Virus record (IMG/VR): IMGVR_UViG_2734482545_000002
From: a virus
Lineage: Duplodnaviria > Heunggongvirae > Uroviricota > Caudoviricetes
Length of the DNA stretch: 25,502 nucleotides
Direction: 5' to 3' (one strand)
Positions 1,415 through 25,502 of the stretch are shown here, piece by piece. Within the stretch, counting starts at the first letter, position 1. Every line of letters starts with the position of its first letter. A program made the translations under genes and the position numbers. The notes below the pieces were generated by a model that searched no databases, was not told the DNA's origin, and saw only the letters and a list, made by a program, of their open reading frames with translations.

Positions 1415-4400
1415 TATGCGAGCCTCACAATATAGTTAAATGCGATGTTTTTGACGGTGTTTTCCGCGTTACCAGCAGCGTTAACGGTGATGGTGTGTCC
1501 ATGTGAACCAATCGCAACAGAGTGCGTATGAGCACCAATACCGACAGTATGCGCGTGTGCACCCGCAGATGCTGCTGTGCCGGACAGTGAGTGTGTATGG
1601 TTTCCTTCTGAAGATGATTTACCTACCCATTGGGAGGTGCCACTGGTTAATGAGCCACTGATACCAACCTGATTAGTCCCGCTAACTTGAGTACTCCCTG
1701 CCGGAAACATTCCAGTAGGTTGACTCCCGCTATTCGTTCTGGGCCCAGTCTGACTATGTTGGTGGGCCCCAGCTGAACTTGTAGAGCCGCTCAGACTGTG
1801 CGTATGCGCCCCGGTGTTATTCGTGGATTTAGTGCCGTAATCAAACGACGATGTGGTTTTCGTCCCCAAATCCGTACTGGATGCGCTGGCGCTGTGGGTG
1901 TGCGATTTAATGCCATCCTGTTCCTGAGACAATACGGCACGACCACTGGCGGGCTTGCCCTTAATCGTCCAGCCACGCATATCAGGGATCACGCCTGACG
2001 GATAAGCGGCTGCAAGTTTCGGGTAAGCAGATTTGTCAAAAGTCTGCCCCTGCATCAGGGCATAACCAGACGGAACGGTATCTGATGGCCACGGGATTGG
2101 TGCACCGACTGGATAAAACTCTGCAGGAGGATGAGCCGAGGTGTAAAGCTGCGCCCACGGCGACCAGTTTGCGTCGGTCGTATCCCGTCGTGAACGAATA
2201 AATGCCGGAGCATGAGCACCGCTTGTACCACTCCAGCCGATGAGTAACTCACCTTCGCCAACGGCTGTCATCCCTTTCAGGTGAATGATATTTCCATACG
2301 CTGTTGGATATCCGTTGTTATACACCTCGTATAACTCAAGACCTGCTGCCCCCTGCGTATTGTCTGTCAGCGCGGCTACCCGACCTTTTGAAGCCAGATT
2401 AACTGATGATACTGCTGTTCCACCTGACGGTAGCGCCCCGATCTCTGATGCCGTTGGCTTATTTCTGGAGTTATAGTCCCTTCGCCAGCCAGGTGAATAA
2501 TCTGTTCCGTGATTAATATAGGTAAACTGGGCGTTGGTTGTTCCGCCACCGCTGGATGTGGTCGGAGTGGTAATGCGGATCGTCATCGCTGACTTTATCC
2601 CCATTACTTCAATGACAGCTCCGGCGAGATGAATATTACCGCAGCCAGTATCAGTAATGATTTTATTATTGCCATAAGACCAGGAACCCTTGCACATCCA
2701 GTATGGATGGTTAAATGCTCCCTGAGAATCCAGCCACTCGATAAACTGTGCAGTCGTCCAGTTTCCTGTTGTTGTGCTTACTGACCCACCGAAGGCACGG
2801 CAGGCACCAATATTTTTCGTAAAGGTGTCTTTGCCAGGGATATCCGCACCGTTCTGATCTTTCTGCAGACGTTTCTCAGCATTGTCATTGGCTGCTTTTA
2901 CTGCCTTTGGCGTTGCCGCCAGCGTTTCAGACGTGCTGTTGGTCGCGCTGCTTAGCTGGATTATCCCTTTCTGTGCTGTCGTTGCATCCTGTGCGGTGTA
3001 TTTCCCGTTAGCCAGGTCATACGCGGCCTTAACGGCTTTTGGTGTTGCCGCCAGTGACTCGGAAGTGCTGTTAGTCGCACTACTGAGCTGTACTATCCCC
3101 TTTTTCGTCGTGCTCGCATCCTCAAGCGCCACGGCGGATGCAATATCCTCTGCCCGTTTTGCCGCTGTCTCAGCGCGCGTTGCTGCAGATTCCGCCGTAC
3201 TTTTGCTCTGAGCTGCTGCCGTCGCACTACCAGCAGCCTCTGTCGCCTTCGTGGATGCCGTCGTGGCGCTGCCCTTCGCTGCTGACGCCTGTCTGGTCGC
3301 CTCATCTTTTGAAGCAGACGCCGATGATGCCGATGACGCCNNNNNNNNNNNNNNNNNNNNNNNNNNNNNNNNNNNNNNNNNNNNNNNNNNNNNNNNNNNN
3401 NNNNNNNNNNNNNNNNNNNNNNNNNNNNNNNNNNNNNNNNNNNNNNNNNNNNNNNNNNNNNNNNNNNNNNNNNNNNNNNNNNNNNNNNNNNNNNNNNNNN
3501 NNNNNNNNNNNNNNNNNNNNNNNNNNNNNNNNNNNNNNNNNNNNNNNNNNNNNNNNNNNNNNNNNNNNNNNNNNNNNNNNNNNNNNNNNNCTGTTTTTGA
3601 GCCTGCCGCAGCTGAGGCACTCTGTCCCGCTGCCGTTTCAGAAGACCTGGCGTTCGTCTCGGACGTTTTGGCCGCCTTCGCAGAATTTGCAGCCGCCGTC
3701 GCCGAGGAAGCTGCGCTACTGGCGCTTGATGATGCGTTCGTTTCTGATGATTTTGCCGCCTCTTTTGAAGCCGACGCATCCCGGGCTGAGGTGGCAGCTT
3801 CTGACGCTTTCGTGGTCGCGGTGGATGCAGAAGTGGCTGCTGATTGTTGTGACGCTGCCGCATTCGTTTCTAACGTTTTCGCCGCACCGGCACTGGTAGC
3901 CGCCGCGCTTTTTGAGGACTCTGCAGCGGCAGCACTTTTTGAGGCTTCAGTGGCCTTTGTTGATGCCGTTCCTGCGCTGGAAGACGCTGACTGAGCCGAC
4001 GAAGCGGCCTGTCCGGCTGACGTGCTGGCTGCACGTGCTGAATCTGCAGCATCAGTCGCATGGGTTGCCGCCTCACGGGCTGATGTGCTGGCATCGCTGG
4101 CTGATTTCTTCGCGGCTGCCGTGTTCTGTGCCACCGCGGACGCGTTACGCGCCACCTCTTCCACCATCAGCTCAAAACGGCGCAGTGCCTCCGGACGGGC
4201 ATCATCCTCCGTCATGGCACCGAGAAAATCATTCAGCGTACCGGGTCGGGAATCTTCATACACGGTGATGGTCCCGGCATGTGACGGCGGGAATCCTTCC
4301 ACCAACAGAATAACGCTGTACTGACCGTACTCAACGTCCATGCTGTAACGCCCGGCTTCATCCGGATTTTCTGAGGCCAGCGTGTTCACCACCACCGTGG

Positions 4401-4556: not shown

Positions 4557-5364
4557 CAGAATTTATAACCGACACCCACGATGAAACCGTCAGTGCGCCA
4601 GAGACGTGTTGCTGTGGCGACCGTCATCACTTCNNNNNNNNNNNNNNNNNNNNNNNNNNNNNNNNNNNNNNNNNNNNNNNNNNNNNNNNNNNNNNNNNNN
4701 NNNNNNNNNNNNNNNNNNNNNNNNNNNNNNNNNNNNNNNNNNNNNNNNNNNNNNNNNNNNNNNNNNNNNNNNNNNNNNNNNNNNNNNNNNNNNNNNNNNN
4801 NNNNNNNNNNNNNNNNNNNNNNGAGCCTTCATAAGCAATATCAATGGCCACGGATTCGGTCGGGTTAAACTGCACGCCAGCTCCCCACGCCAGAGACGTG
4901 TTGCTGTGGCGACCGTCATCACTTCCGGTCAGCACGTCGTGCGTTTTCCCCTTGTTGTCAGTTACGCGGAGATAATCCCCGGAGAAAGTCGACACACGGC
5001 TGTAAGCCACACCCGCCATCGCATACGCGCTGAACCATTCATTCACGCGCACAGACGGCCCCGCCATCACGCTGAACCAGCGGTTACGCACGGAATCTTC
5101 ATGCCAGCGGGTATCGCTGTAACGGGTCAGCTGGCGATTCTTGTCTCCTGCATAGCTGAATGACGTCACCAGCCCCAGCGTATCCGTAAACTCATAACGG
5201 TATTTCACGTTAATCCCGTTCAGATCATCACTGCCGGGAACGTTGGTCCGGGCATGAAGATACCCCGCGCTCAGCGTGGACTGATGTTCAGACGCCCATG
5301 CAGGCGCACCGGATACGGCCAGGCAAATGGCTGCGGACAAAATGGCTGCACAAACTTTACGCAT
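4557..5364 (-). CDS. lom: Outer-membrane protein Lom (Ail/Lom family beta-barrel), interrupted by a 189-nt N run
   Basis: N-terminus MRKVCAAILSAAICLAVSGAPAWASEHQSTLSAGYLHARTN... and C-terminal TDGFIVGVGYKF-stop (4592..4557) match lambda Lom. The span is ~187 nt longer than lambda lom, about the size of the N run. Confidence 0.9.
4634..4822. other. Run of 189 N inside lom, flanked by a duplicated ~38-bp block
   Basis: cgccagagacgtgttgctgtggcgaccgtcatcacttc occurs at 4596-4633 (immediately left of the N run) and again at 4887-4924. Confidence 0.95.
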
Positions 5365-5434: not shown

Positions 5435-8400
5435 TCAACGAATACTGATGCCGGAAGCCGCTTTTTTGGTCACAATCACCGTACAGTCGGTGATATTGCC
5501 TGCCCCCTGATTGCCTTTCTGGAAAATCTTAAACTCCAGAGTGACGCTACCACCACCACTAGGCATATCAATAACTGCACTGTAACTACCGGGAATGGCC
5601 CCTTTAGTTTCTCTGGATGCGATTAATACGCCGTTTTTGCGAACTTCAAAACCATAACCCGTGTATCGCGTGCCTCCTGGGTTATTTCCGCTCCCCGGAT
5701 CGTCATACGCTATACCGTTAAAAATAATGGGCGGAATAATAATCTGGCGGTCAAAGTTATGATCATCGCTTATGGTGACTGTAACCGTCCCGTTTGGTGT
5801 TTCCGTGTTACCCCACGTACCAGCCTGTTTCGGAAATGATTTGGATACAGCTTTAACGAAGTCACCTCTGACCTGAGTCGCCTCCAGCATGCCCTTAATC
5901 GTACAGTTTTCATTTACCGTGACATTGTTGAGCGTCCCGGCGTTCGCATTCACACTGCCACTGATATCCGCATTTTTAGCGGTCAGCTTTCCGTCCGGAG
6001 TCAGGGAAAATGCCGATGGATTTCCACCGCTGGTAATGGTGGGGGCCGTCAGGCGTTTCAGGAACACGTCGTTCATGAATATCTGATCGCCCTGACCAAC
6101 AAACATCGGTTTTGTGTTGCCATTCGCAGGATTAACCATCGCAATCCTGTCCGCCGCCAGCAGCACCTGACTCTGCATGCCGTCAGGGGTGTTCTCAATA
6201 CCGGCACCAATACCCGCGATATAAAGGCGTCCGTCCTGCATCTGCTGCAGCTTCACAGCCCACATGCTGTTCAGGTTATTATTTGTATCAACCTGAACCT
6301 TCTGTATCTGCTGAATTGCCGCACTCTGGTCTTCCAGTTTCTTATTGACGGTCTGCGTGATTTCATTGCTGACATCCGTAATGGACGTCCTGATTTCAGC
6401 CAGGTCAGGCGCAAGCTGACCGTTATCAATCTGCGTCCACAGCTCCTGAGCCAGATGGGTTTTCCCTATCTCGCCTTTGAAAAAATCCAGATAACCGGAT
6501 GCATCATCACTCGGCTGACCAACAGCCTCCACGAATGCCGATTTGCCAACGGTGTTCACACTGCGGATATAAAAGTAATAATCATGGCCCGGTTTGATAT
6601 TGATACTGGCGGCTATCCAGTACAGCGCCGTGCCAAGATAGCGTGCTGTGGTTTCAACCTGCCTGATATCCGCAATCCGCTTTTCCGAGAACCAGAACTC
6701 AAACTGTACCGTCGGATCATAAACCGCAAGATGCGGCGTGGCGGTTATCTGAAAATAGCCCGGCGTCAGCTCAATCCGCGACAGCGCTGCCGGTGCGGCA
6801 ATCCGGAACGATACCGACGCCGGATCGCCCTGCTGCCCCCACGCATTTACTGCCCGGACTGTCAGCCTGTAGTTCCCCAGCGCCAGTTGTGTGAAGCGGT
6901 AAGTGGTTTCCGTCGTCCGGGCCGTGCTGACCAGNNNNNNNNNNNNNNNNNNNNNNNNNNNNNNNNNNNNNNNNNNNNNNNNNNNNNNNNNNNNNNNNNN
7001 NNNNNNNNNNNNNNNNNNNNNNNNNNNNNNNNNNNNNNNNNNNNNNNNNNNNNNNNNNNNNNNNNNNNNNNNNNNNNNNNNNNNNNNNNNNNNNNNNNNN
7101 NNNNNNNNNNNNNNNNNNNNNNNNNNNNNNNNNNNNNNNNNNNNNNNNNNNNNNNNNNNNNNNNNNNNNNNNNNNNNNNNNNNNNNNNNNNNNNNNNNNN
7201 NNNNNNNNNNNNNNNNNNNNNNNNNNNNNNNNNNNNNNNNNNNNNNNNNNNNNNNNNNNNNNNNNACCGTCAGGAACACGGCTCACTTTTACCTTCACGC
7301 CGTCGGTGACGGACTGGACCTCCACGCTGACCGGATTCCCCTGCCCGTCAACCAGGCTTATCAGCGTGGTGCCGGAGGATGGCAGCGTGATTTCACGGTC
7401 GAGCGTCAGCGTCCGGGTCTGGCTGTTCACCGCCAGCACGCGCCCGCCGGTGCGGATACCGGCATAGTCATCATCGCAGATTTCAATGACATCGCCCGGT
7501 ACATGACGAAGCCCTTCAGCACCCACGCTGAAATCCACGGTCTGCGTCTCCAGCAGTTCCGTTTTAATCAGCCACAGCCCGGCGCGGTGTGCCTGCCCCC
7601 GGCTGGTACAGCCAAAGGCATCCATCTTCGTGACGTTACGACCGTAACGGACAATGGCCTGCGTATCCTCCACAAGCTCTGTCGCCGTCTCCCAGCCGTT
7701 ATCCGGGTCAATCCAGTTCACCTCAACGGCATTATGGCGGTCTTTCAGGGCGCTGAAACTGTAGCGGAACGGCGCGCCATCATCCGGCATCACCACATTA
7801 CTGCGGTTATAGGCCCACACCTTATCCGACTGTCGGTCCTGCACGAACGTCAGCGTCTGCCCGTTCCATACCGGCATACAGCGCATCGCCGAGCAGAAAT
7901 CACTGAGCACATCCCACGCCTTGCGCTGTGTGGTCAGCCAGGCATTACAGGTGATGCGCGGCTCCGTGCTGCCAAAGCCGTCCGGCACCGACTGGTCACA
8001 GTACTGGCCGATGACATACAGCGCCCATTTATCCACATCTGCCGCACCAAGACGTTTCCCCATGCCATAGCGCGGATGGGTCAGCATATCCCACAGACAC
8101 CAGGCCATGTTGTTGCTGTATGCCGGTTTTAACGTTCCGTCCCAGATACCGCTGTATTGCCGCGTCTGCGGATTATAGTTCGACGGCACCTGCAGAATGC
8201 GCCCGCGAAGATGATAATTACGGCTCACCTGCTGGCTGCCGAACTGCTCCGAATCCACCTGTACGCCGACCAGTGCCGTGTTCGGGTAGCACTGTTTCAC
8301 ATCGATGATTTCGGTGTATGACGACCAGAGCGTTTTGTTCTGCAGCTGGTCTGTGGTGCTGTCCGGCGTCATTCTGCGCATCCGGATATTAAACGGGCGC

Positions 8401-8921
8401 GGCGGCAGGTTATCCACCACCACCGAGGCCAGATACTGCGAGGTGGTTTTGCCCTTAATGGTGATGTCTTTTTCCGTCACCCAGCCACCGTTACGCTGTA
8501 TCTGAACCAGCAGGCGGACTTCCGACGGATTCCTGTCTCCCTTTGAGGTGGTTTCCACCAGTGCCTGTACACCGAAGGTAAAGCGCAGACGGTCGATGTT
8601 TGCCGACGTGATGGTCCGGGTGATCGGCGTGTCATATTTCACTTCCGTACCCAGCACCGTCTCGGAGCCGGAGGATTCAAACCCCTCCGGCGGTGACTGC
8701 TCCTGCTCACCTGCCCGGAACACCACCGTGACGCCGGAGATGTTGGTATTCCCCTCATTGTCCAGCACCGGCGTACTGTTCAGCAGCACGCTTTTTAATC
8801 CATCCACCGGACCTTCAACCGGCCCTTCACTGATGGCATCGATCACACTCAGCAGCTGCGTGGACTTCAGGTTGTCCTTCGCTTCGCGCGGGGTATGCCC
8901 CTTACTGCTGCCTTTACCCAT
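5435..8921 (-). CDS. J: Tail tip / host specificity protein J (central tail fiber), about 1130-1160 aa; split into two track ORFs by a 331-nt N run
   Basis: N-terminus [45 protein letters not shown] matches lambda J. Track ORFs 6771..8921 and 5435..7279 are the N- and C-terminal parts in different frames across the N run. The C-terminal ~150 aa diverges from lambda J. Confidence 0.9.
6935..7265. other. Run of 331 N inside J
   Basis: Literal n characters. The J frame changes by +1 across the run, so the stated gap length cannot be exact. Confidence 0.99.
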
Positions 8922-19928: not shown

Positions 19929-23609
<3,681 letters not shown>

Positions 23610-23635
<26 letters not shown>

Positions 23636-24155
23636 TCAGCAACCCCGGTATCAGTTCATCCAGCGCGGCTGCTTTGTTCATGGCTTTGATGATATCCCGT
23701 TTCAGGAAATCAACATGTCGGTTTTCCAGTTCCGGAAAACGCCGCTGCACCGACAGGGGGATCCCGTCGAGAATACTGGCAATTTCACCTGCGATCCGCG
23801 ACAGCACGAAAGTACAGAATGCGGTTTCCACCACTTCAGCGGAGTCTCTGGCATTTTTCAGCTCCTGTGCGTCGGCCTGCGCACGCGTAAGTCGATGGCG
23901 TTCGTACTCAATAGTCCCTGGCTGGAGATCTGTCTCGCTGGCCTGCCGCAGTTCTTCAACTTCCCGGCGCAGCTTTTCGTTCTCAATTTCAGCATCCCTT
24001 TCGGCATACCATCTTATAACGGCGGCAGAGTCATAAAGCACCTCATTACCCTTGCCACCGCCTCGCAGAACGGGCATTCCCTGTTCCTGCCAGTTCTGAA
24101 TGGTACGGATACTCGCACCGAAAATGTCAGCCAGCTGCTTTTTGTTGACTTCCAT
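23610..24155 (-). CDS. Nu1: Terminase small subunit Nu1, 181 aa
   Basis: MEVNKKQLADIFGASIRTIQNWQEQGMPVLRGGGKGNEVLYDSAAVIRWYAERDAEIENEKLRREVEELRQASE... matches lambda gpNu1. Lies immediately beside cos. Confidence 0.96.
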
Positions 24156-24380
24156 TGTTCATTCCACGGACAAAAACAGAGAAAGGAAACGACAGAGGCC
24201 AAAAAGCCCGTTTTCAGCACCTGTCGTTTCCTTTCTTTTCAGGGGGTGTTTTAAATAAAAACATTAGGTTACGGCGAAGAAGAACGGAAACGCCTTAAAC
24301 CGGAAAATTGTCATAAATAGCGAAAACCCGCGCGCCTTCCGCCCCGTAACCTGTCGGATCGCCGGAAAGGACCCGCAAAA
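24156..24380. promoter_or_regulatory. cos: cos DNA-packaging site: cosB (Nu1 R-sites), cosN-equivalent 12-mer (24333-24344), cosQ-side flank
   Basis: Sequence between the Nu1 start and ~24380 aligns with the reverse complement of the joined lambda genome ends (from memory). Inverted R-site repeats gaaaggaaacgacag (24181-24195) and ctgtcgtttcctttc (24221-24235), plus an R3-like agaacggaaacgcc (24281-24294). The 12-mer at the cosN position is cgccttccgccc, against lambda aggtcgccgccc in this orientation. Confidence 0.85.
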
Positions 24381-24543
24381 TGATAATAATTATCATCTAC
24401 ATGTCACAACGTGCATCTACGCCATCAAACCACGTCAAATAATCAATTATGACGCAGGTATCGTATTAATTGATCTGCATCAACTTAACGTAAAAACAAC
24501 TTCAGACAATACAAATCAGCGACACTGAATACAGGGCAACCTC

Positions 24544-24777
24544 ATGTCAACGAAGAACAGAACCCGCAGAACAACAACCCGCAACATCCGCTTTCCTAAC
24601 CAAATGATTGAACAAATTAACATCGCTCTTGTTCAAAAAGGGTCCGGGAATTTCTCAGCCTGGGTCATTGAAGCCTGCCGCCGGAGACTGTGCTCAGAAA
24701 AAAGAGTTTCGCCTGAAGCAAACAAAGAAAAGAGTGACATTACTGAATTGCTCAGAAAACAGGTTAGACCAGATTGA
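24544..24777 (+). CDS. DUF3950 family small protein (YlcI-like), 77 aa
   Basis: MSTKNRTRRTTTRNIRFPNQMIEQINIALVQKGSGNFSAWVIEACRRRL... matches the YlcI/DUF3950 proteins I recall from lambda and DLP12-type prophages beside cos. The C-terminal tail differs from the K-12 copy. Confidence 0.8.
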   Translation: MSTKNRTRRTTTRNIRFPNQMIEQINIALVQKGSGNFSAWVIEACRRRLCSEKRVSPEANKEKSDITELLRKQVRPD

Positions 24778-25245: not shown

Positions 25246-25502
25246 ATCATAACGTCCGGTTTCTTCCGTGCCAGAACCGGACTCGCTGGCATGATGAAAT
25301 ATGTGTACCCGGTAACCCCGGTGTGCATCGTTTTTGATTATTCCCGCACACTCGCGCAGAAGGAGTTCCCCGTCGGGCTACGGTCTCTGTTAATACGGGA
25401 ATACGGCGACGATTGGATTTGCCCCTATATTTCCAGACATCTGTTATCACTTAACCCATTACAAGCCCGCTGCCGCAGATATTCCCGTGGCGAGCGATAA
25501 CC

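Follow-up and report, generated by a model that had tools for sequence, protein, structure and literature searches.

The window, by which we mean the whole 25,502-nucleotide stretch of DNA that was analysed (IMG/VR record IMGVR_UViG_2734482545_000002), carries a lambda-like prophage in reverse orientation: Nu1, A, W, B and a full set of lambda-sized head and tail ORFs lie on the minus strand. Genes on the far side of cos include one that is ylcI/ynfO-like (24544..24777) and one of the DUF1398 family. The elements of the cos region and the adjoining terminase genes are the following.

24368..24374, minus strand: cosQ heptamer GGGTCCT, at lambda −30 to −24; packaging-termination element.
24331..24346, minus strand: 16-bp cosN core, CG–GGGCGGAAGGCG–CG, with the conserved CG at both nick positions.
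24333..24344, minus strand: cosN cohesive-end 12-mer, GGGCGGAAGGCG, equivalent to lambda bp 1–12; predicted to form the 5′ overhang at the left (Nu1-side) end of the chromosome.
24339..24344, minus strand: left half of cosN (bp 1–6), GGGCGG, the same as in lambda.
24333..24338, minus strand: right half of cosN (bp 7–12), AAGGCG; the variable, mutation-tolerant half (PMC4669245), which adjoins cosB.
24280..24295, minus strand: cosB R3 (lambda bp 50–65), AGGCGTTTCCGTTCTT, the same as in lambda; limits from PMC9026076.
24221..24236, minus strand: cosB R2, one 16-bp inverted copy, paired with R1.
24180..24195, minus strand: cosB R1, the other 16-bp inverted copy, paired with R2.
23610..24155, minus strand: Nu1, terminase small subunit, 181 aa, intact; PF07471 is recorded at an identical locus.
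21710..23635, minus strand: A, terminase large subunit (gpA), 641 aa, intact, with the lineage-specific substitution L404R; GpA_ATPase/GpA_nuclease, PF05876 and PF20454 are recorded at an identical locus.

The 12-mer at 24333..24344 occurs only once in the window and reads cgccttccgccc on the plus strand and GGGCGGAAGGCG on the minus strand, which is the lambda orientation. We aligned the region with five closely related natural phages and with lambda, represented by the DE3 record. In that record, the feature annotated as ‘cos site’ is GGGCGGCGACCT, so the lambda sequence given in the first-pass annotation was correct. Relative to this sequence, the window has mismatches at bp 7, 8, 9, 10 and 12 and is the same at bp 1–6 and bp 11, giving a cohesive-end identity of 7 of 12 bp. 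The right hexamer is AAGGCG in the window versus CGACCT in lambda. The same annotation had described a nick-site 12-mer altered in one half-site, flanks near-identical to lambda on both sides and a conserved cosB, and the alignment agreed on each point. Five of the six bases in the Nu1-side half are changed and the other six bases of the 12-mer are identical. Outside the 12-mer, there are no differences from lambda between −16 and +34, the nearest being at −17 and +35. In cosB, R3 is unchanged, R2 and R1, which have 16 bp in common (PMC9026076), are intact, and the interval between cosN and R3 contains no indels, leaving the spacing as in lambda.

The changes in cosN are strongly clustered. 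The region contains 23 differences from lambda in 400 bp, of which 5 fall inside this single hexamer. Given the background of 18 in 388, the probability of five or more changes in six positions is 1.2 × 10⁻⁶, or ~5 × 10⁻⁴ when corrected for all window positions. A second cluster, of four changes, was seen at window 24415–24420 (lambda −71 to −76), where lambda has CTCCAC and the window GTAGAT. GTAGAT at −76 to −71 is the common natural haplotype and occurs with both cosN alleles; this cluster was ruled out as a window-specific feature, as it is lambda itself that carries the minority haplotype, CTCCAC.

With its five mismatches, the site falls outside the canonical GGGCGGCGACCT type. It is otherwise lambda-like in its left half, both CG pairs, the distance to cosQ, the spacing of R3, R2 and R1, and the adjoining Nu1 and gpA. 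Rotational symmetry extends over 8 of the 16 bp of the cosN core in the window as compared with 10 in lambda: the G2:C11 and flanking pairs are kept, G3:C10 and G6:C7 are lost and C4:G9 is gained. By contrast, GGGCGGAAGGCG and GGGCGGCGACCT have the same G+C content (10 of 12) and a very similar duplex stability, with nearest-neighbour ΔG37 values of −17.8 kcal/mol for GGGCGGAAGGCG and −18.2 kcal/mol for the lambda end. As both properties are preserved, the self-annealing of GGGCGGAAGGCG ends should be unaffected.

A comparison with the cos sites of other lambdoid phages, proposed in the first-pass annotation, established that GGGCGGAAGGCG is not a private mutation: it is a rare, recurrent natural allele, and the exact 12-mer was found on many backgrounds, phage and phage-plasmid records included. 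We searched 5,426 complete E. coli genomes using a 40-nt probe centred on GGGCGGAAGGCG with an obligatory 28-nt exact seed. This seed must span the whole 12-mer, and matches to the probe therefore carry exact GGGCGGAAGGCG. The allele was present in 83 genomes at 88 places, 73 of them chromosomal and 15 on plasmids. Lambda-type cos regions, located with a 110-nt probe, occurred in 3,510 of the same 5,426 genomes at ~6,000 places, 27 of which were on plasmids. The exact 12-mer was confirmed in every variant-probe locus that was retrieved, and the neighbouring genes varied (iss/ylcI, KilA-N/DUF1398, Qin-like cspI and others).

The allele was also found repeatedly in IMG/VR. A scan in which the 12-mer was left free returned at least 120 sites; among the matches listed, 115 were canonical, 3 carried GGGCGGAAGGCG and 2 had single-base variants. 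Only 1 of the 120 sites listed was changed in the left half; the single left-half variant seen in IMG/VR reads GGGCGACGACCT. A scan specific for the variant yielded 55 contigs with 29 different haplotypes over −60 to −1, and one upstream haplotype was found with both cosN alleles. Metagenome contigs with GGGCGGAAGGCG numbered 31. The cosB beside the 12-mer in the 55 contigs was mostly of the lambda type, with two other downstream arrangements, and at least two types of small terminase subunit adjoin the allele. Four IMG/VR contigs have another cosB after GGGCGGAAGGCG, and the Nu1-family protein encoded there is also of another kind, 180 aa long (PF07471, E 1e-24). Downstream of it, these four contigs have a 91-aa ORF and then a capsid-E gene that is truncated, with no gpA within 3.2 kb; they could represent a deleted prophage or a satellite-like element. 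In one IMG/VR metagenome contig, the 12-mer and ~45 bp of cosB precede a gpA frame that opens at a Met near residue 60. This contig is a deletion derivative that has lost Nu1 and the 5′ end of A.

To these alleles can be added those recovered by IMG/VR scans in which either A7 alone or G12 alone was fixed. GGGCGGAAGGCG was dominant in both, with 51 contigs each. Rare right-half alleles with the same flanks were AAGGCT, CAGGCG, AAGCGT, CAGACG, CTGACG, CGACCG and AGACCT, the last of which (C7A) also occurs in phage PhiR70_1. GGGCGGAAGGCG has the most divergent right half among the alleles encountered. The existence of rare neighbouring alleles (CAGGCG, AAGGCT, AAGCGT and CAGACG) makes a stepwise change through tolerated intermediates plausible. 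Two single-step origins for the hexamer were considered and rejected. Had CGACCT undergone a micro-inversion, the result would be AGGTCG, two mismatches away from AAGGCG. The hexamer AAGGCG is also found inside R3 (TTTAAGGCGTTT), from which it might have been copied by templated conversion; chance alone would place a given 6-mer within 200 bp in about one case in ten.

We also scanned GTDB genomes with the pattern cosQ-N21-CGGGGCGG-N6-CG. Chance matches in G+C-rich genomes dominated the output and only three real cos sites were recovered, two in Citrobacter and one in Kluyvera. Literature searches with GGGCGGAAGGCG in either strand gave only unrelated matches; the survey of Vahanian et al. 2017 (Virology 509:140) lay outside these searches. 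The phenomenon of natural right-half variation in cosN is already known, and GGGCGGAAGGCG itself is absent from the searched literature.

Published work on lambda bears directly on how such an allele might behave. Many mutations at bp 7–12 have a minimal phenotype (PMC4669245, Feiss et al. 2015). By contrast, symmetric changes in the left half are severe: according to Xu & Feiss 1991, as summarized in PMC4669245, G2C carries a tenfold cost and C11G none. This asymmetry between the halves depends on cosB (Hang, Catalano & Feiss 2001, as summarized in PMC4669245). Anchoring at cosB makes bottom-strand nicking insensitive to sequence, and nicking becomes inaccurate when the anchoring is disturbed (PMC4669245); terminase measures off ~47 bp from the R sequence to its cut (Higgins & Becker 1994, as summarized in PMC4669245). 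The tolerance of bp 7–12 is accounted for if the cosB-anchored terminase sets the bottom-strand nick by distance. Natural cosN variation is likewise confined to bp 7–12, with the flanking CG pairs and cosQ conserved: N15 and phiD326 differ from lambda at bp 9 and 12, and Gifsy-1 at bp 8, 9 and 11 (PMC4669245). Moreover, cosN-N15 is as good a substrate for lambda TerL as the lambda site itself (PMC4669245).

Because the changes in the window are confined to the half that terminase tolerates, GGGCGGAAGGCG is most likely a working site with a different sticky end and not a broken one. We consider it probable that GGGCGGAAGGCG is a functional, naturally occurring lambda-type cosN allele that is cut by an ordinary lambda-type terminase, and we infer that cutting occurs at the usual positions to give 5′-GGGCGGAAGGCG ends. 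In the proposed mechanism, the Nu1–gpA terminase would bind cosB, and the R3-bound small subunit would set the large subunit such that the bottom strand would be nicked at a fixed distance, between bp 12 and 13, with little influence from the sequence of bp 7–12. The top-strand nick, at the conserved left half, would come from a second gpA. The predicted products are 12-nt 5′ overhangs, GGGCGGAAGGCG and its complement, in place of the lambda GGGCGGCGACCT. Such ends would be self-complementary by construction and as stable as those of lambda, and the chromosome should still be able to cyclize. The efficiency of cutting could be reduced, since the five combined right-half changes are matched by no published mutant.

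From the 12-mer, the first-pass annotation had drawn an either/or: the phage has a different cohesive-end sequence, or its cosN is mutated and the prophage may be unable to cut and package its DNA. Recurrence, intact terminase genes and the tolerance of bp 7–12 favour the first of these, and a different cohesive-end sequence in this phage is, on sequence grounds, well supported; the second is disfavoured. According to that second reading, the five substitutions block nicking, the DNA is not matured and the allele survives only in dead prophages. Consistent with it, the right half has kept only one of its six lambda bases, the symmetric pairs G3:C10 and G6:C7 have gone, the prophage lies in an IS-rich Shigella sonnei genome, and the portal gene is disrupted in some sister strains. 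In addition, none of the phage records and none of the 31 metagenome contigs starts or stops at GGGCGGAAGGCG. We nevertheless find inactivation unlikely. Decay would not be expected to strike the tolerant half alone and leave cosQ, cosB, the left half and the CG flanks intact, and cutting is normal in published right-half mutants and in natural variants (PMC4669245). The allele occurs on many backgrounds, and in a crude test, full-length Nu1 and gpA were encoded at 38 of 42 variant loci, counting those with at least 2.75 kb downstream, as compared with ~30 of 60 canonical loci. As described below, identical terminase proteins accompany both alleles.

The allele is also found in phage records and telomere phage-plasmids of unrelated strains and hosts, which is difficult to reconcile with its survival in dead prophages alone. 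Two phage records contain GGGCGGAAGGCG, YDC107_1 (classified in Ravinvirus) and PhiR46_1, and both are N15-like telomere phages. PhiR46_1 is complete, comprising telL/telR, ParAB, a primase, a lysis cassette and a full lambda-type head–tail module. Its host field reads ECOR13, which suggests that this carrier produces virions; a paper describing PhiR46_1 or the PhiR phage records was not found in our literature search. Of the 27 lambda-type cos places on plasmids of complete E. coli genomes, 15 have GGGCGGAAGGCG. The ~46-kb plasmids that were examined, such as pEC21Z151-46K, are N15-like telomere phage-plasmids that combine telN, ParAB and a primase with a lambda-type Nu1–A–head–tail module.

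Whether the prophage in the window can itself make phage is a separate question, one that depends on regions beyond the window. Over 6.8 kb the window is 100% identical to CP104423.1, and it is 99.98% identical to CP041322, a Shigella sonnei genome (PMC8209639); on the strength of these matches, it is very probably an S. sonnei prophage. Directly beyond window position 25502, in the usual place of the lambdoid lysis cassette, is an IS3-family transposase. An element encoding an integrase, AlpA and Bro-N truncates the portal gene B at 293 aa in CP041322 and in one draft genome. Together, the L404R substitution in gpA and the IS3-family element beside the window mean that this prophage may be inactive for reasons unrelated to cosN. 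The head and tail genes of the window itself are open. J appears frameshifted, being represented by ORFs 8921..6771 and 7279..5435. The window contains runs of N at 3341–3590 (250), 4634–4822 (189) and 6935–7265 (331), in the side-tail-fibre, lom-like and J genes. The frameshift was rejected as a sign of a dead prophage: it is an artefact of the third N run, and comparison with intact gpJ shows that only the masked stretch is missing.

A further alternative, which we judge very unlikely, is that the bottom-strand nick is displaced, yielding a cohesive end that differs from that of lambda in length as well as in sequence. The altered right half and the reduced symmetry would be compatible with such a shift, as would the inaccuracy of nicking once anchoring is disturbed (PMC4669245), although these points bear on it only indirectly. 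However, the spacing between R3 and cosN and the CG at bp 13–14 are unchanged, and it is the distance from R3 that sets the nick position, according to references cited in PMC4669245.

Alternatively, GGGCGGAAGGCG could require a co-evolved terminase of altered nuclease specificity and mark a distinct packaging specificity. Suppressors in gpA that extend cosN specificity have reportedly been obtained in lambda genetics (Arens et al. 1999). Further, the window gpA carries L404R, three residues past D401 and thus near the nuclease Asp; D401 belongs to the AGIDSQ motif, which lies where the nuclease domain begins. We compared 39 variant with 34 canonical carriers that encode full-length gpA, and no gpA residue separated the alleles. 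Indeed, four gpA proteins and five Nu1 proteins were 100% identical between variant and canonical carriers. The gpA residues most associated with GGGCGGAAGGCG, D9 and A21, reached only ~50% versus 10%. This association looks like linkage, as both residues fall where A overlaps Nu1 or lies next to it. L404R was present in 3 of the 73 gpAs sampled and in just 3 of the 39 variant carriers. The exact gpA of the window is indexed in ~7,000 blocks of public assemblies, indicating that the L404R protein is fixed in a heavily sequenced lineage. Overall, these comparisons make a co-evolved terminase highly improbable, and cutting of GGGCGGAAGGCG would appear to need no special or co-adapted enzyme. Finally, an error of sequencing or assembly, to which the masked N runs elsewhere in the window might point, has a negligible probability and is already refuted by the identical cos region in independent complete genomes (CP104423.1 and others) and by the presence of the allele in more than 80 E. 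coli genomes.

A functional GGGCGGAAGGCG allele has consequences for annotation. A cos site that departs from lambda at 5 of 12 bases should not be annotated as dead if the changes lie in bp 7–12. Tools that look for the canonical 12-mer to locate lambda-type termini would miss ~1.5–2.5% of sites (88 of ~6,000 places in complete E. coli genomes; 3 of the 120 sites listed from IMG/VR), and they would also overlook over half of the telomere phage-plasmids with a lambda-type cos in those E. coli genomes. The allele further provides support from natural variation for a cosB-proximal nick that is set by distance: it is more extreme than those of N15 and Gifsy-1, and identical terminases occur on both alleles.

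It is conceivable, although we regard it as doubtful, that GGGCGGAAGGCG constitutes a second cohesive-end compatibility class among lambda-like elements of E. coli and Shigella, shared by integrated lambdoids, N15-like telomere phages and the elements with a different Nu1. If the same terminases cut both alleles, a chromosome packaged from one allele to the other, its ends mismatched at 5 of 12 positions, should fail to cyclize. Lambda/N15 ends, with two mismatches, are viable at a fourfold cost (PMC4669245), and five mismatches should cost far more than this. If the compatibility-class reading is true, GGGCGGAAGGCG could partly block cos-mediated hybrid formation, hijacking by satellites or cross-packaging from prophages that are adjacent or in tandem, and this effect might keep the allele at low frequency. 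True incompatibility of GGGCGGAAGGCG ends with those of lambda would also bear on which lambdoid elements exchange arms through cos.

Among known cohesive ends, the canonical GGGCGGCGACCT type is that of lambda, 434, HK630 and many others. The window has in common with lambda the cosQ heptamer GGGTCCT, the CG flanks, the left half GGGCGG, C11, and R3, R2 and R1 with their spacing; Nu1 and A are ~98–99% identical across natural carriers. It differs from lambda at bp 7, 8, 9, 10 and 12 and in having 8 rather than 10 symmetric bp.

The N15 and phiD326 end, which we confirmed in N15 as GGGCGGCGTCCG, is likewise a natural variant in the right half only and has G at bp 12. It differs from the window at four positions, however, and G12 is the only variable position that they have in common, which places the window outside the N15 type. 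N15 departs from lambda at only two positions and has its own simple cosB and TerS, whereas GGGCGGAAGGCG is mostly found beside a lambda-type cosB and Nu1; N15-like telomere phages also carry the window's allele. An N15-type end was found in the Kluyvera site. The Gifsy-1-type end, GGGCGGCAGCGT in Citrobacter meridianamericanus, is again a right-half-only variant and has A8 and G9 in common with the window. Unlike the window, it has the lambda bases C7, C10 and T12 but not C11; with four differences between the two, the window is not of this type. The putative cohesive end of mEp213/LLS, GGGCGGCGCGCT, which was inferred for this E. coli lambdoid phage (PMC12315714), is also a right-half variant; its only differences from lambda are at bp 9 and 10, and the head genes that accompany it are not those of lambda.
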